Below, piece after piece: positions 1 through 37,347 of a stretch of DNA of 64,000 bases. Where the stretch lies: NCBI GenBank assembly GCA_965202985.1, contig CBDBCF010000001.1, forward strand, positions 576,001 to 640,000, read 5' to 3'. The stretch is from Longimicrobiales bacterium. GTDB taxonomy: Bacteria; Gemmatimonadota; Gemmatimonadetes; Longimicrobiales; Gaopeijiaceae. The notes under the pieces were generated by a model, which was not told the origin of the DNA, made no database searches, and worked only from the letters and a program-made list of their open reading frames with translations. A program made the position numbers and the translations under genes. Position 1 is the stretch's first letter; each line of letters begins with the position of its first letter.

Positions 1-1
1 G

Positions 2-256
2 GGGCCGACCCAGATCGGGGAACGGTGCTCGATTCCGAAGGAACTCCTCAAGATCGCCCTCTGGCGCACCGTGGAGGCCCTTCCCGAACTCCAGCGGACG
101 GTTGTTCTGCTGCGGGTTCGCGAGGGCATGACGATCGCCGAGATCGCCGAACGCATCGACCGGTCCCCCGGCACGGTCAAGGCCAGCCTCCACCGTGCGC
201 GCGCGACGCTGCGCGCTGAACTGGGGGAAGACTTCCAGCTTTCGGCTGGGACGTAA
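2..256 (+). CDS. ECF-type RNA polymerase sigma factor, C-terminal region 4.2 (5' truncated by window edge)
   Basis: Frame is open from position 2. ALWRTVEALPELQRTVVLLRVREGMTIAEIAERIDRSPGTVKASLHRARATLRAEL fits the sigma70 region 4.2 pattern (LPxxxRxxxxL...EG.s..EIA......GTVK..L.RAR..LR). Confidence 0.9.
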   Translation, partial: GPTQIGERCSIPKELLKIALWRTVEALPELQRTVVLLRVREGMTIAEIAERIDRSPGTVKASLHRARATLRAELGEDFQLSAGT

Positions 257-313
257 ACCAAAACTCCCCTTCGTCCCATCTACTGGGTAACCGTGGCGGG
301 AGACGATGGCTCC
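252..313 (+). promoter_or_regulatory. Conserved motif copy 1, putative ECF sigma promoter (GTAAAC-N18-CATCTA) plus conserved leader
   Basis: CGTAAACCAAAACTCCCCTTCGTCCCATCTA, with near-identical copies at 2739 and 11616. It overlaps the sigma-factor stop codon (254-256). Confidence 0.65.
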
Positions 314-353
314 CTCCTCGGCAGTTTACCCTCCCTAATCCAAGGAGTCACTT

Positions 354-575
354 ATGGAATCCATCAAGAAGCTGGGCGTTGTGCTGGCGCTGGCCGTGCT
401 GAGCCTCCTGGCCGCACCGACCATGCCCGCCGAGCCCCTCGGCAGCGCGGTCGAGACGGAGCTAGCGGCCGCCAACGACGTGTGGCGGGCTTACTACGTC
501 CAGCCCGGGGTCTTTCTCTGCATCCTTGCCGTCTGCTACGACGGTTGGTGCTGCGAGATAATACCGCCTGCCTAA
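354..575 (+). CDS. Small secreted Cys-rich peptide (signal peptide + AVETEL motif + C-x4-C-x4-CC core)
   Basis: AAGGAG RBS at 342-347; KK plus hydrophobic N-terminus; C-terminal FLCILAVCYDGWCCEII; degenerate paralog at 2837-3053. Confidence 0.8.
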   Translation: MESIKKLGVVLALAVLSLLAAPTMPAEPLGSAVETELAAANDVWRAYYVQPGVFLCILAVCYDGWCCEIIPPA

Positions 576-622
576 GGTCTCAACGACCTGGGATGGCGAA
601 GCCGTAGCGTCGCCCCGGCCGA

Positions 623-659
623 GGCCGGGCTCCGGACAAGATCGAGCCGGGGCCCGGCC
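623..659 (+). promoter_or_regulatory. GC-rich hairpin between the peptide gene and the propeller gene
   Basis: GGCCGGGCTCCGG (623-635) pairs with CCGGGGCCCGGCC (647-659). A homologous hairpin lies at 13266-13308. Confidence 0.5.
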
Positions 660-691
660 AAGTCGACTCACTAGACGGTGGAGCGTAAGTT

Positions 692-1735
692 ATGTTGACG
701 AACCGGAGTCTCCAGGACCCGTTGCTGTCGATGTTGGTGCTCGTCGTTGCTTCATCCGCATGCGTAGACGACGCCCGCCACCCCCGGCCAGCGTCGTTTC
801 CATTCTCGCCCGACGCCGCCGTCGCCGAATTCTCGGACATGTTCGAGGTCGTGGACTCGCTGGTCTTGGAGGAAAACGACAGCACGTTGGTGGGCCTGCC
901 GATCGTTAGCTTCGACGGTGCCCACTTCGTGACGGCGGACATGTACTCGCATCAAGTACGTGTCTATACGAAGAGAGGGGAACTCGTCTCGTCGACAGGA
1001 AGTCGAGGAGAGGGCCCCGGGCAGTTTCGTAGTCCGGTATCGGCCCGGCGAACACGGGAAGGCGGTATTCTCGTGACCGACCCCGGGACGTGGCGATCAA
1101 CGCATTACAGATCCGATGCTTTGCGAAATCCCGAGGTCACTCCGCTTCCGGCGTCGATCGTGACGTTTGATCAGATTGATCTGGGCGACGAGCGTACCCT
1201 GTTGCTCGGGCCGAACCTCACCACATCACTTGACAGCGTCGGGCGCACTCTCCACATTTGGAATGCCAATTCCGCAGAGATTGACGTCAGCTTTTTCTCC
1301 AACCCGTTTCCACAGCACTTGGCAGAGGCCGCGGCATTTTATGCCACCGTAGAGGCAGAGGTCGCCGAGGACACGATATGGGCAGCGGCGGCACTTTCGG
1401 ACAGTGTGTATGCATTTGACCTGGACGGCGCTCAGATCAAGGCGATTCCGTTGCCGTTGAGCGAACAGGCTAGCTCGATGGAGCTTCTCTGGGTCATCAA
1501 CGCCATGTACCTCCTTCACGACGGCGACATCGCAATATGGCTAAGTTGGACAACGGCGCCCCAGACGCAGGAGGTGACGCACTACCTTGCGATCGTGGAC
1601 CGCCACGGCGAACCGACGGCCTTGCTTCGCGATACGCCCAAACTGTACGTCGTGGCAGACGACCTGTTCTACTTCCAGAATCCGAACCACCTCGAGCCCA
1701 CGCAGTGGATCGCGGCACGTCGGAGGAATTCATAA
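692..1735 (+). CDS. 6-bladed beta-propeller lipoprotein (paralog A1)
   Basis: Lipobox-like VASSAC; GSRGEGPGQF motif typical of DUF5128/NHL-like propellers; strong similarity to the ORFs at 3217 and 13370. Confidence 0.85.
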   Translation: MLTNRSLQDPLLSMLVLVVASSACVDDARHPRPASFPFSPDAAVAEFSDMFEVVDSLVLEENDSTLVGLPIVSFDGAHFVTADMYSHQVRVYTKRGELVSSTGSRGEGPGQFRSPVSARRTREGGILVTDPGTWRSTHYRSDALRNPEVTPLPASIVTFDQIDLGDERTLLLGPNLTTSLDSVGRTLHIWNANSAEIDVSFFSNPFPQHLAEAAAFYATVEAEVAEDTIWAAAALSDSVYAFDLDGAQIKAIPLPLSEQASSMELLWVINAMYLLHDGDIAIWLSWTTAPQTQEVTHYLAIVDRHGEPTALLRDTPKLYVVADDLFYFQNPNHLEPTQWIAARRRNS

Positions 1736-2272
1736 GTGACGACGGCCACTCGGCGATTTGCCAGGTTGGTCGCCCACGGGGTCGGGGCGATTTCCGTGGC
1801 GGTGGCATCCATGGCTGGGTGTAGGGCCGACTCGGAAAGAACGTTGCCGCTGACCGTCGGCGATTCTGCACCCTCTATCGGACTTTCTGATTCCATCCCG
1901 GGGCTGATCTGGGTGTTCCGCAAAGAGTCCTGCCTGGGATGCGGCTTGGGGTCTGCGGCATCGGAGATGGCGCTGGTCAGCCGCCGACTCAGTGGTCGCG
2001 TGGAAATTCTTGCGGTGGCCGTAGGCGCCGAGACGAACGCGGACCGCAGGTTGGTGGAGGCATTCCTGCAACGCCGCCGGGTCCGCACGACCGTCGTACC
2101 GATCAGCGCCCGGAGCCACGCCAGCATCTTTGGGAATGCGCCGATTCCGTCCCTGTACCTGACTCATGAGGGGCGGGTCCAGATGGTGCTGGACTTGGGC
2201 CACGAAGAGGCGCTGGATAGCCAGTTCGTCCGCTTGGACAGCGTCCTGGATATCCTGCTTCCACGGCCCTAG
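1736..2272 (+). CDS. Thioredoxin-fold (TlpA/redoxin-like) lipoprotein with CxxC
   Basis: Lipobox SMAGC; VGDSAP; beta strand followed by CLGC; VEILAVAV strand; IPSLYL cis-Pro-loop-like motif. Starts immediately after the propeller stop codon. Confidence 0.7.
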   Translation: MTTATRRFARLVAHGVGAISVAVASMAGCRADSERTLPLTVGDSAPSIGLSDSIPGLIWVFRKESCLGCGLGSAASEMALVSRRLSGRVEILAVAVGAETNADRRLVEAFLQRRRVRTTVVPISARSHASIFGNAPIPSLYLTHEGRVQMVLDLGHEEALDSQFVRLDSVLDILLPRP

Positions 2273-2508
2273 CCCGGACTAGGAACGTGTAGTCCATAGC
2301 CGATCGGTGGGGGACGCCGAGATGAACACCGGGCGATTTTGGGCGTCGGAGGGCGTACAACGGCAGTGAGAGGCTGGATCCGAGCGAAAAATAGGGCGCG
2401 TAGGCCGTGCGGATCGCCCGCTTCTCCCCAATTTGCCCACCACTACACCTTCCAGACAAAGGGCGCGGGCTTATGCCCTACGGGCTCCTAGCCCGGATCT
2501 CTCACAAG

Positions 2509-2545
<37 letters not shown>

Positions 2546-2738
2546 TTCCGGGACGACCGGGACCCAAGCCGCGTCTAGCCGACTTGGGCGTTCTCGAGCC
2601 GGTTCAGCGTTGGCCTTGACCGCCAGGACGGCGCATCCCTTGCGCAGGGCGGGAGCGTCGTCAACACCTGCGACGCACAGCCGGGACTCGCGGGCGGCAC
2701 GGCACAGGCACGGTTGGCTCGGGCCCCGAACTGGCTCC

Positions 2739-2798
2739 CGTAAACCAAATCGACCTTCGTCCCATCTATTGGGCAACCGTGGCGGGGACGATGGCTCC
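2739..2798 (+). promoter_or_regulatory. Conserved motif copy 2, putative ECF promoter (GTAAAC-N17-CATCTA) plus leader
   Basis: CGTAAACCAAATCGACCTTCGTCCCATCTATTGGGCAACCGTGGCGGGGACGATGGCTCC aligns with 252-313. Confidence 0.65.
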
Positions 2799-2836
2799 GG
2801 TCTCGGTTCCAACCTTCCTCAACACAAGGAGGACAC

Positions 2837-3053
2837 AAGAACACCATCAAGAAGCTAGCAGTCGGGCTGGTCCTGGCCGTAGCGTGCCTCCTGGCCGCTC
2901 CCGCCGTGCCCGTCGAGCCCATCAGCGACGCGGTGGAGACGGAGCTGGAGGCCAGCAGCCGGCGGTACCAGGCCCAACAGTTCTCGGACGTCATTAGTCT
3001 GCCACCCCAAGCCGTGCTCGGGTGGACTGTGTTGCGAGATCTCGCCCTTCTAG
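2837..3053 (+). pseudogene. Degenerate paralog of the 354-575 Cys-rich peptide (AAG in place of the start codon; frameshift near 2996)
   Basis: AAGGAGG RBS at 2826. Reads (K)NTIKKLAVGLVLAVACLLAAPAVPVEPISDAVETELEASSRRYQAQQFSDVI, then in the +1 frame VCHPKPCSGGLCCEISPF*. Confidence 0.8.
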
Positions 3054-3216
3054 GCTAGGATAAGAGTCCTTAGCAACGGGCGAAACACGCAGCACGCCAG
3101 AACCACTTTGGGGGGCTCGTCCTTCGACGCGCTTTTGCCAGGCAACGAGGGGCGGGCCTCCCAAGAGCTCGCTCATGCAAGTAAATCTCTCACAAACCAA
3201 CACTAGGACACATTCC

Positions 3217-4254
3217 ATGTGCCGTCGCGCCTCTGGTTTCGCTTCCGTCTTCGTCTTGGCGATTATCCACGCCGCATGCGGCGGGACCGCTCCATCCGAG
3301 CTTCCCGCTTCGTATCCGTTTGCTCCCGACGCCGGACCGCTCTCGGCGTTCTCAGACGTCTTCGAGGTCGTGGATTCCCTAGAGCTCGAGGAAAACGACA
3401 GCGTGGTCGTTGCTACGCCCGTGATCAGCTTCGACGGAGACCGCTTCCTCATGGCTGACGTGTACTCCTTCCAGGTCCGTGAGTACGCTGTAGACGGCTC
3501 GCTCCTGTTCGCCGCGGGACGGAGGGGCAGTGGACCGGGCGAGTACCTTGCCCCGATGCGTGCCAGCCGTGCCCTGGACGGTGGGATTCTGGTTATCGAC
3601 GGGCCCGCCATGCGATCCACCTACTACCCTCCCAGCGCTCCGCGCGACCCTAGGACCGAGGAGCTGCCGTTCTTTGCCTACAAGCAGATCGAACTGAGCA
3701 TGGACCGGCGGCTTGTGGCCGGAAGCGCGCTATCGCACACGCCGGGGCAGCCGACGCCCATGTTGCACATATGGAACGTTCGCACCGGGGATTTGGAACG
3801 AAGCTTCCTGACCGACCCCTTTCCAAAGCATCTCGAGTCCATAGCCATGTCGAAAGCAGCCGTGGACGTGATGGTGCGCAGGGACACGATCTGGGCTGTT
3901 TCCGCGTTGTCGGACAGTGTCCATGCCTTCGGGATGGACGGCTCCAGGATTGGCACTATTCCTTTACCGCTTGTTCACCTCTCGGATCAGGAGCGGCCCA
4001 ATTTGATCTGGGACATCACGCAACTGCATCTCCTCGGAGAGGACGAAATCTTGGTCGAGCTGGGCTATGGCGATCGAACAACGGGAGACTTCAAGAAGTA
4101 CGTCGCAATTGTAGATCGCAAGGGCAACCCGAGAGCCATGCTTTCCGACACCCCAACGCTACGTGTGGTAGCGGACGACCTGTTTTACTTCCAGAACCCG
4201 GGCCACTTGGAGCCGAATCGATGGGTCGTGGCTCGACGAAAGGACCAGTCGTGA
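3217..4254 (+). CDS. 6-bladed beta-propeller lipoprotein (paralog A2)
   Basis: Lipobox IHAAC; GRRGSGPGEY; shares DTIWAxSALSDSV and DTPxLxVVADDLFYFQNP with A1/A3. The start could instead be 3175. Confidence 0.85.
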   Translation: MCRRASGFASVFVLAIIHAACGGTAPSELPASYPFAPDAGPLSAFSDVFEVVDSLELEENDSVVVATPVISFDGDRFLMADVYSFQVREYAVDGSLLFAAGRRGSGPGEYLAPMRASRALDGGILVIDGPAMRSTYYPPSAPRDPRTEELPFFAYKQIELSMDRRLVAGSALSHTPGQPTPMLHIWNVRTGDLERSFLTDPFPKHLESIAMSKAAVDVMVRRDTIWAVSALSDSVHAFGMDGSRIGTIPLPLVHLSDQERPNLIWDITQLHLLGEDEILVELGYGDRTTGDFKKYVAIVDRKGNPRAMLSDTPTLRVVADDLFYFQNPGHLEPNRWVVARRKDQS

Positions 4255-5380
4255 CGACCCTGCTCCTGGTCGTCCCGTTGGCTTCCGTCGTCGCGGGCGG
4301 CGAGCCGGTCCGGGCACAGCAGTCCGTCGGACCCGCTTTGATCTTGGAAGACAGCGTGGTTCTCCAGGAGACACGGGACGCGTACGTCGGTCAGCCGGTT
4401 GAGATGTTTCTGGGCAACGACGGCTCGCTGTTCGTCGTCGACGGGTTCTCGAACAGCGTGGTGCGCTTCGACCAATCGGGGCGGCTGGTCGGTACCTACG
4501 GACGGCAGGGCCAAGGCCCGGGCGAGTTTTCCTACATCGGCTTCGGCGGGTTCGCCCAAGAGATCCTGGGAGTCGTCGACGGTCGGCCTCCGCGGCAGGA
4601 AATCGAGTTCTTCGACGTGGAGTCCGGCCGCCACTTGGGGAGGGCCGCGACGTCCGACATGGTGACGGCCGTGACAGCCCACGGGGGGAAGCTCTGGGTG
4701 GGAGGCGTGAATACCGACGAATGGAAGGGCTTGGGGGTCAAGCCCCTCCGTGCCCTGCCGGGCGGCGAGATTCGCTGGACCGCGTCCCGATTCCCAAGCC
4801 GTACTCGGAGAGCCAACTGCTTCTGTGGATTGGCGGAAGCGCTCGGTTGCATGCCGGCAACGCGGACCTCCTTGTCGGATACATGGCAAGTCCGTTTCTA
4901 ATGCGCGTCGACCCCAAAGGAGACGTGCTCGACACGATACCGCTCATAGCCGGTAAGCGCCGCGGCGTGCCCGCCGAAGACAAGCTGCTCGACATGGCGA
5001 ACAGCCATCAGGCCGGCAAAACGACCTACGAAGAGATATTCAGCGCTTGGTCGTCGCTGATGAACCTGTCCAGAAACGACGGCTTCGTCTTCACCGTTCA
5101 CCAGGACAGCGAGCTGCACGGCCAGCAGGTTGCCGGCAAGCTCTACGTGAGCAGCCTGCGCGAAGACGGCACGAAACAGTGTCCCGACACGCCGGTGCCC
5201 ACCTCGGACGTGGGGCGGCCCGTCGCGGCGTTTCGGGGTGCCAACCTCTTCGTCCTGGACCAGCGGATCGACGCCGGCGAGCCAGATCGCGCTCAGACCG
5301 TCGTGCGAAGGTTCACGGTCGATCCCACCGAGTGCACGGGCGAAGTCAGGGGCGGCGAGCGGGCTCGACGAGCAGGTTGA
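4251..5380 (+). pseudogene. Secreted 6-bladed beta-propeller, second type, split by a -1 frameshift near 4770
   Basis: GTGA overlap with the upstream stop; signal peptide ...PVRA-QQ; GRQGQGPGEF. Coding-like sequence continues in ORF 4721-5380. The frameshift may be a sequencing error. Confidence 0.7.
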
Positions 5381-5403
5381 CGACCAGCCGCACCATCCGG
5401 TCC
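5345..5403. repeat. 59-bp direct repeat, copy 1 (duplicate of the fic gene 3' end)
   Basis: 58/59 identical to 6759-6817. Confidence 0.9.
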
Positions 5404-5757
5404 ACCTCCGGCGGCAACGCGCGTTGGCGTCGCAGGGAACTTGACCGACCGCTCATTGTCTGCCAACATCCCGAGGTTCAACCATGCGTGCACTCTCGAC
5501 TACGGATTCACAATGGGAGCCTCGAACACTCGCGCTCATGACGTCGCGACTCGCACCTCCGTCACCGGAGGCATGGCGGCCGACGGGGTCCTTGCGGCGC
5601 CGGTCGTTGGTGGAATGCGCGACGAGAGCCGAATGTGCGTCTGGGCGGCGAGCGAGGTAAAGGCGGGGCGTCGTCGGCAGTCGACTGAACATGAGCAGTC
5701 GGAATCTGGTCGAAGAGCGGCACGACAAAGGGCCTGCGCACACGTAGGCGGGAGCCC

Positions 5758-6690
5758 ATGACTTCGCTCTATGACGACAGCTTGGCTCGGCCGTACTACA
5801 CGAAGGTGGCGCACGAGAAGGTGGACAGGGCGAACTTCGAGGATAAAGATGAGGTCATATTCTCTTTACTGGGGATAGGACTGGCCGCTATCGTGGGTGC
5901 GGCAACGCTTAAGGGACTGAATCCTGTTGTGTCCTTGGTTATCTTGTCTCCGTTTGCTTTGCTTACGGGGCTGGCGATCCGTCGCAGAGTGCGTAATCGT
6001 CTCAGCACCGAGCGGGATCGACGCATTGACCGCATTGTCCGCGATGGCGTCGCGGCGTATCAGGCCGGAGACGAGGACGCCGTGTCTGCGGTGCACGATT
6101 TTACCCTTCGGTTGTTGCGCAGGCGGGTGGAAGAGCAACGGAAGCAGACCCTGGGACCCTCGTCGGAGTGGGAGCTTGCGCGTGCACCGCTAGCGACGGC
6201 GCTGGACGACGTGGAGGTCGAGGTCGCCTACTGGGACGAGCGGATTCGGGAAGAGCCGAACAGCGAGCTGGCTTCGCTTCAGCTCCAGACGGCCCGCAAG
6301 CTGGAGGCCAAGCTGCGTTCGGCGCTGGGCAAGGTAGACGGCCGGGCTGAGGTGCTGCGCCAGTTCTACCACCGTTGCGAGGCCAAGCTCGCCGTCATGG
6401 ACCGCAGCAACACCGACCTGACGAAGGTCAAGCGACTGGAGGAGCTGTCGGTAAGGGCCGATTCGGCTATTGCGCACGCCCAGGGAACCGTCGAAGCACT
6501 GGCCCAGCACTTCCTGACGGAGGCGCAAAACATCGCCAGCGCGCTGGGAAGTGCGGACCATTCTCAGTTGAGTATGCTGGCCGGGGCCGCGCCCGTCGAC
6601 AACATCGAGTTCCTGGCCGACAAGATCCACGAGAGGTCGGAACGCAATCGGAGTACTATCCGGCAACTGGAGAAGGCGCTGGACGAATAG
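5758..6690 (+). CDS. Hypothetical membrane-anchored coiled-coil protein
   Basis: 310-aa ORF with GGGAG RBS; two N-terminal hydrophobic segments followed by a long charged helical region. Confidence 0.75.
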   Translation: MTSLYDDSLARPYYTKVAHEKVDRANFEDKDEVIFSLLGIGLAAIVGAATLKGLNPVVSLVILSPFALLTGLAIRRRVRNRLSTERDRRIDRIVRDGVAAYQAGDEDAVSAVHDFTLRLLRRRVEEQRKQTLGPSSEWELARAPLATALDDVEVEVAYWDERIREEPNSELASLQLQTARKLEAKLRSALGKVDGRAEVLRQFYHRCEAKLAVMDRSNTDLTKVKRLEELSVRADSAIAHAQGTVEALAQHFLTEAQNIASALGSADHSQLSMLAGAAPVDNIEFLADKIHERSERNRSTIRQLEKALDE

Positions 6691-6758
6691 CGACGCGCGT
6701 CCGACGAACAGCGAAGCGTCCCCGCGGGTCCGAACGGCGGGCGAGGCGAAAGCGAAGC

Positions 6759-6817
6759 GTCAGGGGCGGCGGGCGGGCTCGACGAGCAGGTTGACGACCA
6801 GCCGCACCATCCGGTCC
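6759..6817. repeat. 59-bp direct repeat, copy 2
   Basis: 58/59 identical to 5345-5403; contains the stop codon and last codons of the Fic gene. Confidence 0.9.
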
Positions 6818-7299
6818 TTCTCGGCGGGCGCACTCTCGGCGACGAGCAGGGTGAGCGTCGTCAACGCTTGCGGCGTGATGTCGCGCCCGATGCCCTCCTG
6901 CTTCAAGTAGATCAGGAAGAGAAGCGAGGCGATGCGCTTGTTGCCGTCGCTGAAGGGATGGTCCTTTACCACGAAGTAGAGAAGGTGGGCCGCCTTCTCC
7001 TCTCGCGAACGATACAGCGGCTCGCCGAACATCGTCTGCTCGATGGCGCCCAGGATGCCGGCAAGCGCATCGTTCCGCGCCCTGCCGAAGAGCGGCGACG
7101 CCTCGCCCCTCGCGATCAGCTCCCGTTTGAGTTCGGCGACGGCGCGGTTGGCGGCGTCGGGCGTGAGGACCTTGCGCGACGGGCATGCGTCGCTGGGGAC
7201 TTCGAGTTCGCCCTCGTCGTACTTGGCGAGCAGACGCCACGTCTCGGCGTAGTCGGCGATGAGCCCCGCCGACGTGGAATCGGTCGCCCCTTCGCTCAC
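6760..7299 (-). CDS. Fic/Doc family protein
   Basis: HPFSDGNKRIA motif; LYRSREEKAAHLLYFVVKDH; GTG start overlaps the PIN gene stop. Confidence 0.9.
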   Translation of the reverse strand: MSEGATDSTSAGLIADYAETWRLLAKYDEGELEVPSDACPSRKVLTPDAANRAVAELKRELIARGEASPLFGRARNDALAGILGAIEQTMFGEPLYRSREEKAAHLLYFVVKDHPFSDGNKRIASLLFLIYLKQEGIGRDITPQALTTLTLLVAESAPAEKDRMVRLVVNLLVEPARRP

Positions 7300-7688
7300 T
7301 TGCCCACGACTTCCACGGTCACGCCGCGCAGCTTGAGGCCGGTCCAGCGGGGGTCGGCGGTCAGCGCGGGCAGGTCCAGCCGCCGAGCCGTGGCCAGACA
7401 GGCCCATGCGCCCATGGTCAAGCCCAGTCGCCGGGTCTTCCGCTCGTAGGCGCCCGCCAGCAGCGCGGTCTCGGCGTCCAGGGGCACGGTCTCGATGCCC
7501 AGCTCCGTCACCACGTCGGCCACTTCCCCCGCCGTCCAGCCGTCCCTCCGGAGAAAGCCGGCGACTTCGGCGACGTTCACCGTGGAGATCGACGCCCCCC
7601 GCTTGAGCGCCTCCTCGACCCGTCCGGCGCCCGGCTCGTCAAAGACGGCAGTCAAGAGGGCCGAAGCGTCCAACACGAAGCGGCCCAT
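7296..7688 (-). CDS. vapC: VapC-family PIN-domain toxin
   Basis: FVLDASALL...EPG...ISTVNVAEV...ACLATA...LTAD. Confidence 0.9.
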   Translation of the reverse strand: MGRFVLDASALLTAVFDEPGAGRVEEALKRGASISTVNVAEVAGFLRRDGWTAGEVADVVTELGIETVPLDAETALLAGAYERKTRRLGLTMGAWACLATARRLDLPALTADPRWTGLKLRGVTVEVVGK

Positions 7689-7690
7689 CG

Positions 7691-8029
7691 CTACTCCTTC
7701 TCGGCGTCGCCGCCACGACCGGCGATGAAGGCTTCCACGGCGTTCCCGGAGGGTCGTCCGGCGGTCGCCCGCTTGCGCATGGCGATGCCCCGCAGTCGGT
7801 CGAGGGCCGCGTCCACCGTTCGCAGCCGGATCGAGTCGCCCTGGAGGCTGGCCACCAACTCCGTCCGGCCCCGGATGCCCAGCGCCCGGCGAAACTTGGC
7901 GGGCACCACCAGCCGCCCGGCCTTGTCGACGACCACCTGCTCGGTGTCGGCCAAGCGGCCCGGCCGCTTTTCGCCATTCGGCGGCCGATCTGCCATTGAC
8001 ACGGGTTCCTGCCGTTCTTGGTCGTTCAT
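7691..8029 (-). CDS. AbrB/MazE/SpoVT-type antitoxin
   Basis: VVVDKAGRLVVPAKFRRALGI; lies directly upstream of the PIN gene; start uncertain. Confidence 0.85.
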   Translation of the reverse strand: MNDQERQEPVSMADRPPNGEKRPGRLADTEQVVVDKAGRLVVPAKFRRALGIRGRTELVASLQGDSIRLRTVDAALDRLRGIAMRKRATAGRPSGNAVEAFIAGRGGDAEKE

Positions 8030-8062
8030 GCCATGTCTCCGTATGTGTACCATGGTGAGGAA

Positions 8063-8092
8063 ATCATACCACATTCTTGCCAATATGCCCAA
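8063..8092 (-). promoter_or_regulatory. Possible sigma70 promoter of the TA operon
   Basis: Minus strand TTGGGC-N18-TATGAT with a TGn extension, in an AT-rich patch. Confidence 0.35.
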
Positions 8093-8171
8093 GGCGGTCA
8101 AGATTGCCATTCAAGATCGTCCTCCCGTTCCCCACGCAAGCACCACGACGCCCATCGTGAAGGAAGCAGAC

Positions 8172-8687
8172 ATGCGGTACCCCATCGGCCTGTTCTCCCC
8201 GCCCGATCCCGTGACTCCGGCGCACGTCGACGCCTGGATTGCCGAGATCGAGGTCCTGCCCACCGACCTTCGGCGTACCGTGGCTCCCCTGACGGACCAG
8301 CAGCTCGACACGCCGTATCGCCCGTCCGGGTGGACCGTTCGGCAGGTCGTCCACCACCTGGCGGACAGCCACATGAACAGCTGCGTCCGGTTCAAGTGGG
8401 CGCTCACCGAGGACCGGCCCACGATCAAGACCTACGACGAGCAGGGTTGGGCGGAGATGCCCGACTACCGGGGGCCGATCGCCGTCTCCCTCGACTTGCT
8501 GGACGCCCTCCACCGCCGCTGGGCGAGGTTGCTGCGGGGGCTGGACGGGTCCCAGCTGCGGCGCGAGTTCGTGCATCCCGACACCGGCCCCGCGGTTCTG
8601 GCGGAGACGGTCGGCGTCTATGCATGGCACGGGCGGCATCACCTTGCGCACATCGAACGGCTCATGGAGCGCGAGGGCTGGCGGTAG
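8172..8687 (+). CDS. YfiT/DinB-family metal-dependent thiol transferase/hydrolase
   Basis: MRYPIG...LDTPYRPSGWTVRQVVHHLADSHMN...YAWHGRHHLAHI. Confidence 0.9.
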   Translation: MRYPIGLFSPPDPVTPAHVDAWIAEIEVLPTDLRRTVAPLTDQQLDTPYRPSGWTVRQVVHHLADSHMNSCVRFKWALTEDRPTIKTYDEQGWAEMPDYRGPIAVSLDLLDALHRRWARLLRGLDGSQLRREFVHPDTGPAVLAETVGVYAWHGRHHLAHIERLMEREGWR

Positions 8688-9660
8688 GCCGCGCCTCCGC
8701 TTCGGTCCAATACCCGATGATCTTGTAGACCAGCTTCGCGACCAGGAAGTCGGGCGCGACAAGGCCCGGAATGGGCGCATGCTCCACTACGTCCGCACCG
8801 ACGACCCGACGCTCCGCGAAGACGCGCCGCAGGAACGTGGTGGCTTGGCGCCAAGTGCCGCCGCCGGGCTCGGGCGTGCCCGTCGACGGAACCAGCGACG
8901 GATCGAAGAAGTCCACGTCGAAGGTGAGGTAGACCGGATCGCCCAGCGCTTCCAGCGCCCGGTCCATCCAGCCGTCGTCTTCCGCCATGGCTTCGCCCGT
9001 GAACGCGGTCACGTTGTCCCGCTCCTGCGCGACCCTCCACTCTTCTGCGCCGATCCCCCGGACGCCCACCGAGACCAAATCAACCACGTCGACCACGCGG
9101 CCCATGGCGCAGGCGTGCGAATAGGGGCTGCCGTCGAAGGCGTCCCGCAGGTCCAGGTGGGCGTCCATCTGGAGGACGGCGAGGCGGCCGTCGCAGCGAG
9201 CCGCGTGGGCCAGGATCGCCGGGGCCGACACCGAGTGTTCGCCGCCGAGCATGATCACGCGCCGACCTGCGGCGGCGTCCAGGACGAGGCCGAACGCGCG
9301 TTCCAGCTCCGCCATGGCTCGGTCCGCCGCGCCCCGTTCCAGCTCCAGCGCCGGGAAGGTGTAGACGCCCTCCTCCGACGGGTCGCGGCCCAGCTCCTGG
9401 TCGTACAGCTCCACGTAGCGGGATGCGTCGATGATCGCCTGGGGGCCGCGGCGCGTGTCCGTGCCCCAGCTGGCGGTGGCTTCATAGGGCACCGGCAGGA
9501 GCCACGTGCCCGCCTCGCCGTGGGTCGCCTTGGCCCCGTCCATCCCCAAGAAGACGCGCGGGAGTTCCCACGGAAGCATGGACAAGCCCGACGGCAACTC
9601 GTGGATCGTGCCCTTCCCGGACCGGCTCGCGGTCTCCGGGTCTCTTCGGTTCGGCGTCAT
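8662..9660 (-). CDS. speB: Agmatinase (ureohydrolase family)
   Basis: LGGEHS, DAHLDLRD, SHAC, DVDFFDPS..PSTGTPEPGG; GGAGG RBS before the ATG at 9660. Confidence 0.9.
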   Translation of the reverse strand: MTPNRRDPETASRSGKGTIHELPSGLSMLPWELPRVFLGMDGAKATHGEAGTWLLPVPYEATASWGTDTRRGPQAIIDASRYVELYDQELGRDPSEEGVYTFPALELERGAADRAMAELERAFGLVLDAAAGRRVIMLGGEHSVSAPAILAHAARCDGRLAVLQMDAHLDLRDAFDGSPYSHACAMGRVVDVVDLVSVGVRGIGAEEWRVAQERDNVTAFTGEAMAEDDGWMDRALEALGDPVYLTFDVDFFDPSLVPSTGTPEPGGGTWRQATTFLRRVFAERRVVGADVVEHAPIPGLVAPDFLVAKLVYKIIGYWTEAEARPTASPRAP

Positions 9661-9785
9661 CGCAAAGCGTCCTCCGGCCAACTTGCCTTCTTTGCCCAGT
9701 CAATGGATTCTGGAAGGAAGGCGGCCGCCGGCCAACCGGCAAGCCGCCGAACGTCCGTGAGCCCAATCGCCCGCCGGAGTTCGCC

Positions 9786-11543
9786 GTGGCCATAGACGCA
9801 TCGCAGTTCTGGAGCCAGGTCCGACTCGGCGAAGACTCGGAACTCGAGTTCAAGGAGGTCCGGTTCAGGGGCGCTCGCCTGTCGTCGCCGAAGCGACCTG
9901 CCATTGCCGACGAGCTGGCAGCGCTGGCCAATTCGCAGGGCGGTCGTCTGGTCTTCGGCGTCACCGACAAGCGCCAAGTCCAGTTGCTGGACCCGGAAAA
10001 GCTGGACGCGGTCGCCGACTTCGTGACCGAACTCTGCGCCGACAGCATCGACCCGCCGCTGGACTTCAGCCTTCACCGAGTTCCGACGCCCGAGCAGCCC
10101 GACCACGGGGTGCTGGTCGTGGAGGTACCGGCGCGGCGCGCCGTGCATCGTTCGCCGGGCGGGTTTTTCCGCCGACGGGGAGCCAGCAAGCGGCTCATGG
10201 CGTCTGCCGAGATCCGGCGGCTTCGGGCGAACGGCCGCTTGAGCGTCAAGTCCGCGGATACCCAGGTGGTGGCTGGCACCGGTGTCGCCGCTCTGGATCC
10301 CAGCCTTTGGCGCCGGTACGCCAGTTCGCGGTCGGGGGACGACGACGAGATCGCGTTGAGCAAGCTCAAGTTCGTCAAGGAGGACGCCCAAGGGGTGGTC
10401 CGAGCGACGGTGGGAGGCGTGCTCTTGGCCAGCCGGGACCCCCGCGAATGGCTGCCGGGCGCCTTCATTCATGCGGTCTGCTACGACGACGACCGCATGG
10501 ACGGGGATCGCTAGCTGGATGCGCAGGACATCACCGGACCGCTCGACCAGCAGATTCGGGACGCGGTGCGGTTCGTCGCGCGCAACCGCCGCGTCGCCGC
10601 CCGCAAGGAACCTGCGCGTCGCGACGTGCCCGCGCCGTCTTCGAAGCCATTGTCAACGCCCTGGTCCACCGCGACTACGCCGTTTCCGGCTCCAAGACGC
10701 CTCTTCATGTTCGACGACCGGCTGGAGCTCTACTCTCCCGGCAACCTTGGCAACTCCATGAGCGTGGAGGACTTGCGAACGAGTCAGTTCACGCGCAACG
10801 AGCTGCTGGCGTCGCGGTTGGGCCAGTGTCCGGTCGGCGAGGTGGCGGGCGCCGGCAGTCGGCTGTACTTCATCGAGCGACGGGGCGAGGGAGTCGGCGT
10901 GATCGAAGACGAGACGTTTGCGCTCGCCGGGCGCAAGCCTCTCTTCGAGGTCGTCGGCGACCGGGAGCTGAAGCTGGTCCTGCCGTCAGCCAGTCCGCCC
11001 GTGCCGGACGGCGTCAGTGCCCCGGTCGCCGTCGTCCATGCCGACACGGGCCAACCCCTCCGAGACATCCACGTCCTCATGGTCTACCCCAACAAGACCT
11101 TCCGCGAGGCGCGCACCGACGCCTTCGGCCACGCCGACTTCGAGCTCTACGCCAAGCTCCCCATGACCGTGTTCTGCGCGGCCCATGGCTTCGCTGCCCA
11201 AGTCGTGTCGGATTGGCGGCCTGGGGACGGCGCCGAGCCAGCGTCCGAGGTGCAAATGCGTCCAGTCCCCGACGGCGGTTCCGTGATCTTTCCCGACCGG
11301 ACCGGCCACGTGCCAGGGCTGCGTGGCAGGTTGAACCCCATCCGCGACAGCCTCGATCGCCTGTACGTCTACGCCGACAACGTCGCAGTCAACACCGGCG
11401 TCCCCCAGCCGGTTCACTTCCAGCTCGACGAGCCCCTCGATATGACCGACGCCCACGGGGCCACGGTCACCGTCCGGTTCCGCGAGGTGATCGGCGCATC
11501 CAGCGTGTTGGATTATGCCCTCGGGCTGTCGTCCGTCCGGTAA
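9786..11543 (+). pseudogene. AlbA_2/Schlafen-like domain + HATPase_c_4 protein with an extra C-terminal beta domain; disrupted
   Basis: GEDSELEFKE...ELAALANSQGGRLVFGVTD; TAG at 10512-10514; EAIVNALVHRDY lies in another frame (~10630-10700); RLFMFDDRLELYSPG and RNELLA resume in ORF 10566-11543. Confidence 0.85.
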
Positions 11544-11615
11544 CGCCCGGGGCAGCGAATGCGCCCTCTTTTGTGAGAGGCCGTGCGTGGTCCATCGGAC
11601 GCACTTCATTGCCCA

Positions 11616-11675
11616 CGTAAACCAAATCGCCCCTTCGTCCCATCTACATGGTACCGCGGCGAGAGACATTGGGCC
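11616..11675 (+). promoter_or_regulatory. Conserved motif copy 3, putative ECF promoter (GTAAAC-N18-CATCTA)
   Basis: CGTAAACCAAATCGCCCCTTCGTCCCATCTA; the downstream leader is more diverged than in copies 1 and 2. Confidence 0.65.
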
Positions 11676-11826
11676 GATCAGCCATCAGTCAGGGGGTTGG
11701 CGAACGGCTTCGGATATTGCGGAAGGACATGCGCTCGTGTACCTTGAAAACACATGTCGCCGGACCGGGGGCCGCTTCGGGCTGCCCGGAAAGCGATCAG
11801 CCCTGCAAGATGGAGGTGACCAAGCG

Positions 11827-12135
11827 ATGCTGGATCGGATAACGAGGAAACTGCTGCTGGGCGTCGCGCTTCTTCCTATCGCGGTAGCTTGCGACGGAAG
11901 CGGGGTAACGTCAGCCCAGGTCTCGACGCCCGAGGAGTTTGAGGCGCACCTGATCGATGAGGGGGCGACTCCCGTCGTGGCACGACTCATTCGACACGCC
12001 ATCGAACTCGAGGACGGCGAGGTGCTTCGCTTTGGGCCCACAGGCTCGCTAGCCGATACCGACCGGGTGTTGCGAAGGTACAGCCTGCCGGACGGGATGG
12101 AGGCTGTCGTCGTTCCTAAAGGAGGGGACAGATGA
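11827..12135 (+). CDS. Small hypothetical lipoprotein
   Basis: GGAGGT RBS; MLDRITRKLLLGVALLPIAVAC lipobox. Confidence 0.7.
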   Translation: MLDRITRKLLLGVALLPIAVACDGSGVTSAQVSTPEEFEAHLIDEGATPVVARLIRHAIELEDGEVLRFGPTGSLADTDRVLRRYSLPDGMEAVVVPKGGDR

Positions 12136-12397
12136 GCCGCAAGGGACTACCCTTTTTCCTGCGACGGCTCTGCTGCTGGTTCACGGAGCAGTATCTGTGT
12201 CAGGTCAGGACGAGCACCCGGAACCTGACTGCTCGACAGACGAGGACAAGCCAAGTCGGTGGAAGCCGTGGACTTGGGATAACTGGGACGACTTCAAGGA
12301 CTGCATACTAGACGAGATGCGGGAAGGCTGTCGCCGGGGATCTATCCACGAGGTGCACGATCAGACGCACTTCCACTGTACTGAGGACGCTTCATGA
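12132..12397 (+). pseudogene. Small secreted 4-Cys protein, frameshifted near 12160
   Basis: GGAGGGG RBS and ATGA overlap; MSRKGLPFF/ATALLLVHGAVSVSG-QDEHPEPDC...WDDFKDCILDEMREGCRRG...HFHC. Confidence 0.6.
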
Positions 12398-12654
12398 ACA
12401 CATCTAAGGGGGTTGCGAGGGCCTTGGTTCTTGGGAGCTTGGTCCTAATTTTCTTCCCAGTGCCCGAAGAAGCGCGCCCTCAGTCGGAGTCGGAGGGGTG
12501 CTCTCTGCACTGGACGGAGGAGACGGACGACGAAGACTGGAAGGAGTTTCTGGGAGTGCGCCGATAGGAGTACGAGAGGTGTGACCGCCAGGGCGAGCTG
12601 TCGATGACAAGACACGGCGACCACTACGACCTGCATTTCAAGGGCAGTTGCTAG
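12394..12654 (+). pseudogene. Small secreted Cys-containing protein with an internal TAG at 12565 (or two compensating indels)
   Basis: ATGA overlap; MNTSKGVARALVLGSLVLIFFPVPEEARPQSESEGCSLHW...DWKEFL..; in-frame continuation EYERCDRQGELSMTRHGDHYDLHFKGSC*. Confidence 0.55.
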
Positions 12655-12663
12655 GAGGGCGAA

Positions 12664-12918
12664 ATGGCAATAGTGCCGGATCGCGCCGAGCGTTTTCGGA
12701 CCGCGCTGGTCTGCGGTTGGGTTGGGTGGCTTCTGGCCTACGCCTATACCCTGTGGCAGTGCTGGGCTTGTGGCGTGGGGAGCGAAAGACTGCTGGTCGC
12801 CGTGGCCAGTCCTTTTTCCGTTGCGATGGCGACTGCGGGAGCGTTGCTCGGCTGGATCGCGACGGCGGTTCGCCAGCGTAAGGCGCGAAAATCCGTTTCG
12901 GGGCGGCCCGAGGCCTAA
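12664..12918 (+). CDS. Small two-TM membrane protein
   Basis: GGAGGG RBS; two hydrophobic helices and a basic C-terminal tail. Confidence 0.6.
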   Translation: MAIVPDRAERFRTALVCGWVGWLLAYAYTLWQCWACGVGSERLLVAVASPFSVAMATAGALLGWIATAVRQRKARKSVSGRPEA

Positions 12919-13007
12919 GGTTCCGGTAGCTCGGACCGGATCGGGAGCCGACGAGGCCGCAGGTTCGGCGTCCCCAGGCCGAGCCGAACCACGGACTTGG
13001 CCCGACC

Positions 13008-13088
13008 AAGGTCTACGTGGACCACCTGCAGAACGGCCACGGCCGCCTGATCGCGGCGTCGTACTGCGTGCGCCCCCTTCCCGGTGCC
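13008..13088 (+). pseudogene. Short fragment resembling the LigD polymerase (primase-like) domain C-terminus
   Basis: KVYVDHLQNGHGRLIAASYCVRPLPGA resembles the LigD Pol motif (K.Y.DYLQN..G....APYSVR..PGA). Confidence 0.6.
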
Positions 13089-13265
13089 GACCCGATCCAC
13101 ACCCAGATCACGCCCATCGTGCACCTGGGCAAGGCCTACCTGGAGGAAAACCGGCGTAGGGTCATTCTCCTTCCCAGGCAAGCCGTTGCCCCTCGGCAGA
13201 CGCTAGGGTAAGGTGGGCGTAAGTTAGCCTGACATCTAAGCTAGGAACGGCGGGCCGCACGGCCA

Positions 13266-13308
13266 GGCCGGGCTCCGGCGTCGGTGCAGATCGAGCCGCG
13301 GCCCGGCC
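13266..13308 (+). promoter_or_regulatory. GC-rich hairpin homologous to 623-659
   Basis: GGCCGGGCTCCGG...AGATCGAGCCGCGGCCCGGCC upstream of propeller A3. Confidence 0.5.
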
Positions 13309-13369
13309 ATTCACTTTGCGAACGAATCGGAGCCACAAAATGCTAGCCTTTCGCGCAAAACCCCTAACC

Positions 13370-14410
13370 ATGCGCGCACACATCCTTTCCCGGCTGGTCG
13401 TCGCAGTGCTGGCAACGTTCGTCGTTCAGGCGGCGTGCGGGGACGCCTCCAGCCGGCCGGCGGCATCGTATCCTTTCGCGGCCGACGCGGATCGGGCCGT
13501 CGCCGACTTCGCCGAAGTCTTTCGAGTCGTGGACACGCTTGTCATGGCGGAGAACGACAGCGTCGTGATCGGGAGTCCGCTCGTCCGCTTCGACGGCGAG
13601 GACTTTGTAATGGCGGACCTCTTCTCTGCACAGGTCCGTTTGTATACCCGACGCGGCGAACTGCTGTGGGCACGGGGACAGCACGGCGACGGACCCGGCG
13701 AGTTTCTTTCTCCGGTGTCGGCCCGCCGAACAACCGACGGACGGGTGGTCGTGGCAGACATTTCGGCCACGAGGGCAACCTACTTCGAGCCCACATTGGA
13801 CCTTGAACCTGCGACAGCAGATGTCCCGTTCCTGACCCTGGACTACATCGACGTGGGCAATGGACGGCGGTTGATCGTGGGCGAAGCGCTAGGCGCATCG
13901 GGCCGTCCCCAAAGCATGCTTCACTTGTGGGACGCCGCATCGCGCACCGTGGAACGCTCGTTCATGGCCGATCCGTTTCCGCCGGAGCTGGCCGCGGCTT
14001 GGGAGAACGTGCTGTACGTGGACGCCCAAGTCGCAAGGGACACGATCTGGGCCGTGTCGGCCCTTTCCGACAGCGTGTACGCGTTCCTGTTGGACGGCGC
14101 CTCGGCCGGTACGGTTCCCCTGCCGTTGAGCCCGCAACCGGAGACGGACGGGGACTTGGCCCCCCTTTGGCTGGCAGCGCACGTGCACATGCTCGACGAC
14201 GGCGACATCGCGGTTCAGCTCTACGACGTCGACATGGAAACGCAGGCGCGCACATGGCACTTGGCCGTGGTCGGGCGAGACGGAGCGCCGAAAGCACTGC
14301 TCCGCGACACGCCCAAGCTGTACGTGGTGGCGAACGACCTGTTCTACTTCCAGAGTCCAGACCACCTAGAACCGAACCGATGGATCGCGGCCCGTCGGAA
14401 GGGCGGCTGA
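13370..14410 (+). CDS. 6-bladed beta-propeller lipoprotein (paralog A3)
   Basis: Lipobox VQAAC; GQHGDGPGEF; ALLRDTPKLYVVA identical to A1. Confidence 0.85.
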   Translation: MRAHILSRLVVAVLATFVVQAACGDASSRPAASYPFAADADRAVADFAEVFRVVDTLVMAENDSVVIGSPLVRFDGEDFVMADLFSAQVRLYTRRGELLWARGQHGDGPGEFLSPVSARRTTDGRVVVADISATRATYFEPTLDLEPATADVPFLTLDYIDVGNGRRLIVGEALGASGRPQSMLHLWDAASRTVERSFMADPFPPELAAAWENVLYVDAQVARDTIWAVSALSDSVYAFLLDGASAGTVPLPLSPQPETDGDLAPLWLAAHVHMLDDGDIAVQLYDVDMETQARTWHLAVVGRDGAPKALLRDTPKLYVVANDLFYFQSPDHLEPNRWIAARRKGG

Positions 14411-14438
14411 CGGAAGCCGCCGCCGAGGGGGCCGTCGC

Positions 14439-14840
14439 CTACGAGGAGGAAGTTGCCCGGTTGCGACGCCGAACGCCGAGCGCCACGCAGGCGAACGATG
14501 CGATCCAACACCAGTACCCGATCAGCAGGTCGTCCACCGAGCCGCTGTCCGCCATTGCTCGTCCGGTCCAATAGAGGAAGTTGAACGCGGTCGCACCCGC
14601 CAGGGCCGGAAGCGCCCAACGCGCCCGCTTCGCAAAGGTGGCGACGGGCAAGAGCACGTTCGTGAGCGCGCTTGCGATGCTCCCGACTCTGGTCGTGTCG
14701 ATGAAGAGCGCGAGCACGAGGGCCTCCCAGCCTCGCGATATCCCAAACGAAGAGTCGGCCGGTAGCGCCAGCGAGACCCCGAACAGGAGCCACCCGACTG
14801 CGAGAAGGTAGGTCGAACGTCTGTCGCTGGCGTCGTCCAT
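14439..14840 (-). CDS. Hypothetical membrane protein
   Basis: GGAGG RBS; about four hydrophobic segments; C-terminal L.IGYW.W..S. Confidence 0.7.
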   Translation of the reverse strand: MDDASDRRSTYLLAVGWLLFGVSLALPADSSFGISRGWEALVLALFIDTTRVGSIASALTNVLLPVATFAKRARWALPALAGATAFNFLYWTGRAMADSGSVDDLLIGYWCWIASFACVALGVRRRNRATSSS

Positions 14841-14946
14841 GGTTCCTCCCGAGTCGTGCGTGATTCGCCCGGCCCCGCCCGATTCGCGTAGCTTACGGCC
14901 CGCCGCCAGCAGCTGGCAATAGAGGCCGTCCCCGTCCCATCCAGCC

Positions 14947-16041
14947 ATGGAATCGCCCGCACGCCATCAAACCGAGCCCGAGCCGCCGACCGACCGAGCG
15001 ACCACCAAGCGCCCGACCACGCCGGCGGCGGAAGAGATTCTGGGAGGCTACTTCCCCGTTCTGGACCACGGGTTCGTGGCGCTGTTGGACTACATGGGGG
15101 GCGACCAGGCCATCGAGCGCGCGGCTAGGGTCAGCTACGGCCACGGTACGCGCCACGTCTCCCGGACTCGGGGGCTCCTGCGATATCTGCGGCGGCACCT
15201 GCACACCACGCCGTCGGAGATGGTCGAGCTCAAGTTCCACTGCGCGATGCCCGTCTTCGTGGCGCGCCAGTGGATTCGTCACCGCACGGCCTCGGTGAAC
15301 GAGTACAGCGGCCGGTACTCGCTGATGCCGCTGCTGTTCTACCGTCCCGACGAGGAGCAGTTCGCGCTCCAGAGCACGGCCAACAAGCAGGGGCGCACGC
15401 AGCAGCCGCTGCCCGGCTTCGACCAGCACGGACTGGCGCCCGGCTCCGAACTCTACCAAGGCGCAATCGACCGCTGGAACGCGGCCCGCGAGCAAGCCGC
15501 CGAAGCTTATGGCTGGCTGGTGAAGGAAGACGTGGCCCGCGAGCTGGCCCGGATCGACCTGCCGCTGTCCACCTATACGCAGTGGTACTGGAAGATCGAC
15601 CTCCACAACCTGCTCCACTTCCTGACCCTGCGCGTGGACGCCCACGCCCAGTGGGAGATACGGGAGTACGCCCGCGTGATGGCGGGAATGGTCAAGCGGG
15701 TCGCTCCCCTGAGCTACGAGGCGTGGATCGACTACCAAGTGGCGGGGGCGCGTCTGTCGCGGGGAGAACTCGAGGCTTTGTCGCGGTTGGTGTCGGTGCA
15801 AGAGGACGGGGTTGCGGCGCGGGGGGATGGAACGCCAGGCGAAGACGACTGCGCCGGGGCCGCGCGCCTTTCCGACGACGACTTGGAGGGATTGGGCCTG
15901 TCGCCCCGCGAGGTGCGGGAGCTCAAGGCCAAGCTGGCGCCGGGGCCGGTCCCCGAGTTCGACCTGGACTTGGCCGAAATGCGGGACGCCGGGGAGGTGG
16001 AGGCGGAAACGGCGGCGGCGGTGCCCGATGTCGACCGATAG
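14947..16041 (+). CDS. thyX: FAD-dependent thymidylate synthase
   Basis: AARVSY, H.TP.EMV, PVFVARQWIRHRTASVNEYSGRY (RHRx7S motif), LRVDAHAQWEIR. Confidence 0.97.
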   Translation: MESPARHQTEPEPPTDRATTKRPTTPAAEEILGGYFPVLDHGFVALLDYMGGDQAIERAARVSYGHGTRHVSRTRGLLRYLRRHLHTTPSEMVELKFHCAMPVFVARQWIRHRTASVNEYSGRYSLMPLLFYRPDEEQFALQSTANKQGRTQQPLPGFDQHGLAPGSELYQGAIDRWNAAREQAAEAYGWLVKEDVARELARIDLPLSTYTQWYWKIDLHNLLHFLTLRVDAHAQWEIREYARVMAGMVKRVAPLSYEAWIDYQVAGARLSRGELEALSRLVSVQEDGVAARGDGTPGEDDCAGAARLSDDDLEGLGLSPREVRELKAKLAPGPVPEFDLDLAEMRDAGEVEAETAAAVPDVDR

Positions 16042-34750: not shown

Positions 34751-34796
34751 CGCAACCGCGCGAAACACGGCGCAAGCCACGCAAAGGAGCAAAGCA

Positions 34797-37205: not shown

Positions 37206-37347
37206 GACAAGAGATTGCGTCGGCGCGCCCGTCGGCCCAATGTTGGGTGCGGCGGGCGCGCCGTCGGGCAAGCTCGGGAGCCAAATGTGCAGCCCAGCCG
37301 CGTCAAATCCACGGCCCAATCTCACTTCGGAATTAGGACACGTCGCC

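Follow-up and report, generated by a model that had tools for sequence, protein, structure and literature searches.

A secreted four-cysteine peptide, an NHL-type propeller lipoprotein and a thioredoxin-like lipoprotein form a conserved gene trio in Gemmatimonadota

Organization of the locus

The DNA analysed here, referred to as the window, is a 64,000-nucleotide stretch of the genome of a Longimicrobiales bacterium (phylum Gemmatimonadota; assembly GCA_965202985.1, contig CBDBCF010000001.1, positions 576,001 to 640,000), and its first 14,410 nucleotides hold the 3' half of a gene for a sigma factor of the extracytoplasmic function (ECF) type followed by three units that each begin with the same promoter-like motif (Table 1). 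Under what is probably a local ECF sigma factor, the window contains a trio of genes in one intact copy and two decaying ones. The trio encodes a four-cysteine signal-peptide-bearing peptide, an NHL-type beta-propeller lipoprotein and a ResA/TlpA-like lipoprotein with a CxxC motif, and it is real, phylum-wide and undescribed. A preliminary description made from the sequence had proposed a layout of three cassettes; the genes exist, as do the three copies of the motif, but only unit 1 proved to be intact, units 2 and 3 having decayed.

The genome that carries the window (G000) is 3.86 Mb in 2 contigs and 92% complete. DNA of the window is also present in sponge and marine metagenomes from 5 studies, with no RNA dataset among the listed runs that carry it; the host is a sponge-associated bacterium in which the copies of the trio are decaying. 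The GC (guanine plus cytosine) content of the three units is 62-64%, compared with 70% in the remainder of the window, so by composition they look like accessory DNA.

Propellers A2 and A3 are 47-50% identical to A1, and a terminator scan found none at the RNA hairpins. The paralogous four-cysteine peptide that had been described in unit 2 is a pseudogene here, lacking a start codon at 2837-2839 and with its cysteine tail out of frame after ~2994, whereas an intact allele exists in sequencing run X3; the second propeller attributed to that unit is present at 4251-5380, but a frameshift near 4772 interrupts it, and it is not a lipoprotein.

Table 1. Features of the ECF sigma gene and the three units (positions in the window)
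Feature	Positions	Strand	Remarks
ECF sigma gene, 3' half	2..256	+	full gene 188 aa, starts ~310 nt before the window
Motif 1, GTAAACC-N17-CATCTA	253..282	+	overlaps ECF stop codon
Peptide 1, 73 aa	354..575	+	intact; signal peptide and spacer, then beta-hairpin (predicted, 45-57) and Cx4Cx4CC
RNA hairpin 1, between peptide 1 and A1	616..665	+	z -3.1; no U tail
Propeller lipoprotein A1, NHL/DUF5128-like	692..1735	+	intact
CLGC thioredoxin-like lipoprotein (ResA/TlpA-like)	1736..2272	+	intact
Motif 2	2740..2768	+	spacer one base shorter than in motifs 1 and 3
Peptide 2 pseudogene	2837..3053	+	start codon gone, frameshift near 2994
RNA hairpin 2, between peptide 2 and A2	3107..3164	+	z -3.9; sequence unrelated to hairpin 1
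Propeller lipoprotein A2	3175..4254	+	intact; start possibly 3217
Propeller B, other subfamily	4251..5380	+	signal peptide, no lipobox; frameshift near 4772
Motif 3	11617..11646	+	
Lipoprotein, 102 aa, separate small family	11827..12135	+	
Secreted four-Cys protein c1	12132..12397	+	frameshifted in signal-peptide region
Secreted Cys protein c2	12394..12654	+	broken around 12554-12567; unbroken there in run X7
Two-helix membrane protein, 84 aa, no family	12664..12918	+	
RNA hairpin homologous to hairpin 1	13266..13308	+	76% identical to hairpin 1; no peptide gene left before it
Orphan propeller lipoprotein A3	13316..14410	+	intact; start possibly 13370

A conserved trio across the phylum

The conserved unit is the trio itself, that is, the four-cysteine peptide (a signal peptide, a beta-hairpin and the pattern Cx3-4Cx4-6CC), the NHL-type propeller lipoprotein and the ResA/TlpA-like CxxC lipoprotein. 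A propeller profile matched at least 32 of 401 genomes of the phylum, a lower bound because five candidates were scored per genome. When the non-self propeller loci were searched for a signal-bearing open reading frame (ORF) that ends in Cx2-5Cx2-8CC within 1.5 kb, 23 of 29 contained one, and the same filter was passed by 47 of 5000 random 4-kb windows of the host genome. Applied to the whole host genome, the filter passes 9 ORFs, 7 of which adjoin a propeller and 2 of which look spurious. A CxxC protein is encoded in 25 of the 29 loci, and the presence of the peptide tracks that of this thioredoxin-like (Trx) protein (24 of 25 Trx-bearing loci, one by profile only, versus 0 of 4 Trx-less loci).

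A search anchored on the Trx-like protein reached 30 of 401 genomes in five families. All 30 of these loci hold a propeller, with a peptide detected by profile in 24 and a cysteine peptide found by a looser filter in the other 6; the locus counts here and above include kin and hence are not independent. Most of the Trx-anchored loci had supplied alignments, whereas six (L130-L135) lie outside every alignment, and all six have a propeller and a cysteine peptide, two of them sharing one peptide. The co-occurrence in propeller-anchored and Trx-anchored loci supports the peptide, propeller and CxxC genes as a conserved module. Close A-type propellers without a peptide also occur (G001, G003).

The neighbours of the trio vary. 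Among 54 of 66 neighbour ORFs scanned in 18 wider loci, housekeeping genes and transposases were found and no modifying enzyme was detected; no anti-sigma factor, kinase or metal transporter was a constant neighbour in the scanned loci. The earlier statement that no enzyme modifying ribosomally synthesized peptides is encoded nearby held for the window as well, none, whether of the MNIO, radical SAM, LanB or another type, being present among 24 ORF references (positions 1-16041) or 28 (14.4-64 kb) that were scanned. In two genera the trio occupies one chromosomal site (L085-L087, L099, L100, L012-L014), between the nuoN/phosphomannomutase region and a deacetylase plus a MacB-like permease pair. 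Beside the loci of genus g52 this permease pair, considered as a module member, is encoded on the opposite strand, and other loci lack it; it is accordingly read as the insertion site.

In the host genome, which has 78 propeller-like ORFs, four further cysteine-rich signal peptides with other patterns each lie beside a distant propeller (C1:1124685, C1:1216488, C1:2556151 and C2:895830), so the pairing extends beyond this subfamily. A scan of JGI metagenomes with the propeller alignment gave 483 candidates, 0 of them confirmed.

Protein folds and the predicted peptide-propeller contact

In the 50 peptides that were aligned the cysteine spacings are 3-4 and 4-6, and of the 10 residues before the first cysteine no fewer than 4 are aromatic or aliphatic. 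A profile of 15 peptides retrieved 36 representatives at E values up to 0.001 among 1.84 billion sequences, no Pfam or NCBIfam family fits the peptides, and a search of the ESM Atlas with peptide 1 gave no usable match (best 0.80, plant clusters). Chi-conotoxin was touched by 1 of the 50 peptides at E 0.15, which was treated as chance, and no conserved GG leader site is present in the alignment. A database relative of peptide 1 (P0002) is 84% identical and keeps the four cysteines, with 5 residues changed between and just after them. A link to the NVEALA peptides of Bacteroidota, drawn in the preliminary description as an analogy, was not supported by profile: none of 15 peptides matched PF14055, nor did any of 50 at E up to 10, and the host genome has none, so the link stays an analogy.

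Propeller A1 is predicted to fold as an NHL-type propeller (predicted local distance difference test score, pLDDT, 86), with the Brat NHL domain as a match (1q7f; E 2.4e-12, template modelling (TM) score 0.60); it also resembles Bacteroides fragilis BF0058 (4raa; TM 0.60) and, by sequence, TRIM71. Its identity to the Brat and BF0058 structures is 12-14%, and it matches DUF5128 (PF17170) at E 6.5e-6, with 26 bits against a cut-off of 22.9.

NHL domains bind ligands on their top face. When residues 25-347 of A1 were co-folded with residues 36-73 of peptide 1, together with 3 controls, the interface score (ipSAE) was 0.64 (0.71, 0.13 and 0.64 in individual runs), compared with 0.02 for the best control; the score mark is reached by 116 of 157 solved pairs and 2 of 215 mismatched pairs and is roughly valid here, where own alignments were used. 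The runs share at least 66% of contacts, and the pLDDT of the partner is at least 42. In the co-fold the peptide hairpin sits in the top pocket of A1, residues 45-57 touching 26 propeller positions, and the cysteine cluster lies outside the confident interface. A separate AlphaFold model of peptide 1, weak overall (mean pLDDT 57), gives the same hairpin strands (45-50 and 53-57). The hairpin of peptide 1 is therefore predicted to be bound by the top pocket of A1.

The contact between cognate partners is also backed by the variability of the modelled pocket. At the 26 pocket positions the identity among A1-A3 is 12, 23 and 8%, compared with 51-53% elsewhere in these proteins and 40-54% at other coil, loop or polar positions, and 0 of 2000 random surface-like sets reached such low values; these comparisons show that the predicted pocket diversifies fast. 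Conserved polar residues are found at none of the 26 positions, a result that speaks for a binding pocket and against an enzyme, and catalysis of the PAL-like or lactonase-like kind was rejected for want of a conserved metal-ligand set at the pocket. With framework identity removed, hairpin similarity and pocket identity gave a partial r of 0.29 over 30 pairs, a value that is exploratory because kin share both hairpin and pocket.

The best solved match of the CxxC lipoprotein is ResA (E 2e-6); both cysteines are invariant in 30 of 30 proteins, and the motif is CLGC in 19 of 31, with CLGC, CLTC and CLSC dominating. The host genome encodes two DsbD-type proteins and one VKOR, and neither MauE nor MNIO was found in it at its 92% completeness. 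These features bear on a role as a metal or redox buffer, in which the ResA-like protein would keep four thiols reduced and the peptide would bind Cu or Zn in the periplasm. The ResA match, the DsbD-type donors and the invariance of four cysteines in the 50 aligned peptides, which were themselves selected by that pattern, are consistent with such a role, whereas it leaves the hypervariable hairpin and pocket unexplained, and neither a metal transporter as a constant neighbour in the scanned loci nor an MNIO enzyme in the host genome was found; we consider it very unlikely.

The ECF sigma factor and its candidate promoter motif

The presence of an ECF sigma gene and of three copies of a shared promoter-like motif, as first described, is borne out by a Pfam match of positions 2-256 to region 4 (Sigma70_r4_2, E 3.9e-18) and by the genome-wide motif count, since GTAAACC-N16/17-CATCTA has 3 copies only in the whole genome when up to 2 substitutions are allowed. 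Of 61 genomes, the same 2 contain both the exact motif and a closely related ECF orthologue, and the two are adjacent in each; because of this co-occurrence and adjacency, the ECF sigma factor probably reads GTAAACC-N17-CATCTA. In G003 the sole motif copy lies ~150 nt from a 51%-identical, divergently oriented ECF orthologue and leads directly into a propeller gene with no peptide.

A paralogous ECF of G003 (44% identity) lies beside GGAACC-N17-CATCTA sites and another ECF of the host genome has GGAACGG versions of the motif nearby, so an ECF family with a common -10 and varied -35 element seems likely from these sequences. A second ECF cluster of the host (L019 11100-17147; C1 ~161-167 kb) has repeated GGAACGG-N-CATCTA sites upstream of a propeller B paralogue. 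For the loose motif AAC-N17-19-CATCTA there is no enrichment (17 matches versus 26, 18 and 13 in controls), so that the extended motif alone is specific, and a sigma-70 scan found nothing at the motif. The main text of an ECF classification (PMC7826278) contains CATC, GTAAAC and Gemmatimon 0 times each; its figures and supplements may hold promoter logos.

The earlier proposal that the ECF sigma factor switches the system on agrees with its co-occurrence with the motif, but the ECF gene lies outside the conserved module: of 21 wider loci that carry a peptide, only 3 have an ECF gene nearby, as judged with a profile built from the host genome's own ECFs, which distant ECFs may escape, and the motif is absent at the others. 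From its distribution, the ECF is apparently a local add-on regulator that captured several envelope genes. One more arrangement in the host (L016 5864-10066; C1 ~2.09 Mb) comprises an ECF, an 8-Cys secreted protein, membrane genes and then a stop-interrupted A-type propeller with a CxxC remnant.

The distribution of the ECF gene also bears on a role in signalling or kin recognition, with the peptide as a strain-specific ligand and the propeller as its receptor that feeds back to the ECF sigma factor. Ligand and pocket both vary (the partial r given above, from pairs in which kin are not independent) and an ECF gene adjoins some loci, whereas the propeller has no output domain, the constant neighbours include no anti-sigma factor or kinase gene, and none of the former is seen adjoining the ECF gene here; together with the scarcity of ECF genes at peptide loci, this makes signalling distinctly unlikely.

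Unit 3, strain variation and neighbouring genes

Unit 3 is not a third cassette of the same system, as had been thought, because its lipoprotein and proteins c1 and c2 form a different gene family and both cysteine proteins are frameshifted. Neither c1 nor c2 is homologous to peptides 1 and 2 (no profile match better than E 0.99), and a peptide of the unit-1 type was not found in the unit. A relative of c1 (P0004) has an intact 88-aa form, without a usable match in the ESM Atlas. Among 151 genomes, 2 others, which both belong to genus g59, clearly contain the cassette of lipoprotein plus c1/c2, where it follows an ECF gene (G483) or precedes a gene for a large secreted protein (G299). Positions 12918-13088, where a peptide gene would precede A3, consist of rearranged fragments of the C2 ~372-375 kb region.

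Strains decay differently at the trio units. In run X3, which comes from a different study, peptide 2 is intact and motif 2 has its full spacing, and the first codons of A3 are deleted. The broken peptide-2 allele is also present in X2 (the same sample as the best holder) and in X4, which has two alleles at 2994. Sequencing error is disfavoured as a cause of the breaks, since X4 and X9 share the broken peptide-2 start codon; X1 and X2 match the window without gaps and both may be its source, and the breaks in B, c1 and c2 are known only from a possible source run, so error is possible there. The frameshift of propeller B is absent from runs X3, X7 and X8. In X7 positions 300-596 are deleted, so that peptide 1 is gone while motif 1 and A1 are kept. 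Housekeeping genes located by motif are mostly long open frames, with 3 short rows, and several (such as rpoB/rpoC) were not located.

Units 2 and 3 are set apart by ~6 kb of unrelated genes (Fic, a VapBC-like pair, DinB, agmatinase and an AlbA-ATPase). Downstream of unit 1, positions 2279-2542 hold a 217-nt non-coding repeat resembling a miniature inverted-repeat transposable element, with two further 97% copies at C1:817614 and C1:1449126, followed by a run of ~33 G where sequencing-run contigs split. Two copies (92%) of the 3' end of the Fic gene, at 5345-5415 and 6759-6829, flank a 310-aa membrane-anchored coiled-coil gene without a family assignment (5758-6690); run X7 joins across this block, which suggests that it is a recent insertion. 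An AbrB/MazE-like plus PIN pair (7296-8110, minus strand; VapBC-like) lies upstream of the Fic gene, a Schlafen/AlbA_2 plus RecG-C ATPase gene with a C-terminal carboxypeptidase-regulatory-like domain is broken across several frames at 9786-11543, and a tandem pair of choice-of-anchor B/FG-GAP proteins occupies 34677-39918.

Proposed function of the trio

The function we tentatively prefer, at a little under an even chance, is that the peptide is an antagonistic disulfide peptide and the propeller an immunity-like binder of it. In this lineage the ECF sigma factor would transcribe each unit from GTAAACC-N17-CATCTA, and the RNA hairpin behind the peptide gene would lift the level of peptide mRNA above that of propeller mRNA. 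The peptide, which has a recognizable signal, would exit by the Sec pathway and shed its signal peptide, and the CLGC lipoprotein, given its fold, would set or reshuffle two disulfides. The top pocket of the propeller is predicted to hold the hydrophobic hairpin before the first cysteine. Competing bacteria would be the target of the peptide, and a propeller that outlives its peptide would remain as an orphan immunity gene; next to the dead peptide 2, A2 is intact, and A3 has no peptide. An immunity role is favoured by the variability of the pocket, by the absence of an output domain and by the repeated survival of propellers that have no peptide.

Several observations weigh against antagonism. 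Of the three co-fold runs one gave 0.13, the fold of the peptide is uncertain, and the co-folding covered one cognate pair and no non-cognate paralogue. Many loci (e.g. L033 and L041) have one propeller and two or three unlike peptides, and no outer-membrane export gene is a constant neighbour among the scanned loci. Proteins of the ResA/TlpA type are normally reductases, not oxidases. The mature peptide 1 is, by its sequence, acidic and hydrophobic, unlike cationic lytic peptides. Finally, run X3 keeps peptide 1 but has lost 648-724, including the first start codon of A1, for which a later ATG at 731 might act as a rescue.

Some of these points are what would be expected if the trio were a maturation or escort module, the main rival, in which the two proteins would resemble a divided Trx-NHL machine: the propeller would keep hold of the hairpin as the Trx-like protein acts on the cysteines, and the product would be a folded periplasmic or surface mini-protein. 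The service of a single propeller to up to three peptides and the tight linkage of Trx and propeller genes, adjacent in all 30 Trx-anchored loci, favour such a chaperone, as does the position of the cysteine cluster outside the confident interface. The fusion of Trx and NHL domains with a joint cleft in NHLRC2 points the same way, whereas that cleft is conserved (PMC6107167) and the propeller pocket is hypervariable. Intact propellers also persist or multiply without peptide or Trx, and on balance a maturation role appears somewhat unlikely.

A broader proposal is that disulfide-stapled beta-hairpin peptides and NHL propeller lipoproteins form a phylum-wide polymorphic code of matched key-lock pairs. 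Such a code would drive warfare between strains of Gemmatimonadota or the recognition of kin, and orphan propellers would be gathered for immunity. This idea is possible and rather doubtful; if true, it would give a role to a portion of the very large expansions of DUF5128-like propellers, uncharacterised proteins that rank with the most expanded in the envelope of these bacteria. The analysis supplies an alignment of 50 peptides, a predicted binding pocket that is defined and three naturally occurring paralogues whose pockets are nearly unrelated, which makes cognate versus non-cognate binding testable with synthetic peptides and propellers made in E. coli. If antagonism holds, the trio would represent a new class of bacterial disulfide peptides and a new kind of immunity protein.

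Comparison with known systems

No description of the trio was found in the literature searched, a search that most subscription journals lie outside. Brat/TRIM71 NHL domains and BF0058, the best fold matches of A1, are RNA-binding or uncharacterised proteins at the low identity given above. SOQ1, which is grouped with NHLRC2, combines a Trx-like domain with an NHL propeller, and both proteins place side by side the same two folds as the trio. In NHLRC2 these domains are fused and the cleft with its CCINC motif is conserved (PMC6107167), whereas the trio has separate lipoproteins, CLGC in place of CCINC and a variable pocket; NHLRC2 was absent among the 16 and 15 solved-structure matches listed for the propeller and the CxxC protein, respectively.

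A parallel in gene content is provided by the NVEALA proteins, which adjoin DUF5128 propellers in Bacteroidota. Both they and the trio peptides have a signal peptide, a short Ala-rich motif that often ends in Gln, a cysteine tail and a DUF5128-like propeller neighbour; the trio differs in failing the PF14055 profile, in its phylum and in its fixed Cx3-4Cx4-6CC scaffold.

The bacteroidetocins (class IIf bacteriocins) are four-cysteine toxin peptides of diderm hosts that have their own thiol oxidoreductase gene, and they have a GG leader, an ABC peptidase-transporter and no immunity protein, according to PMC6671954, in which the word 'propeller' occurs 0 times. The trio differs from them in its Sec-type signal, its lack of a transporter (no C39 ABC peptidase-transporter was found in the window scans or in the 54 of 66 neighbour ORFs), its propeller partner and its CC-ending scaffold. 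Both systems pair a small four-cysteine peptide with a dedicated thiol oxidoreductase gene, and by this analogy a disulfide bacteriocin equipped with an oxidoreductase of its own would be the nearest functional counterpart of the trio.

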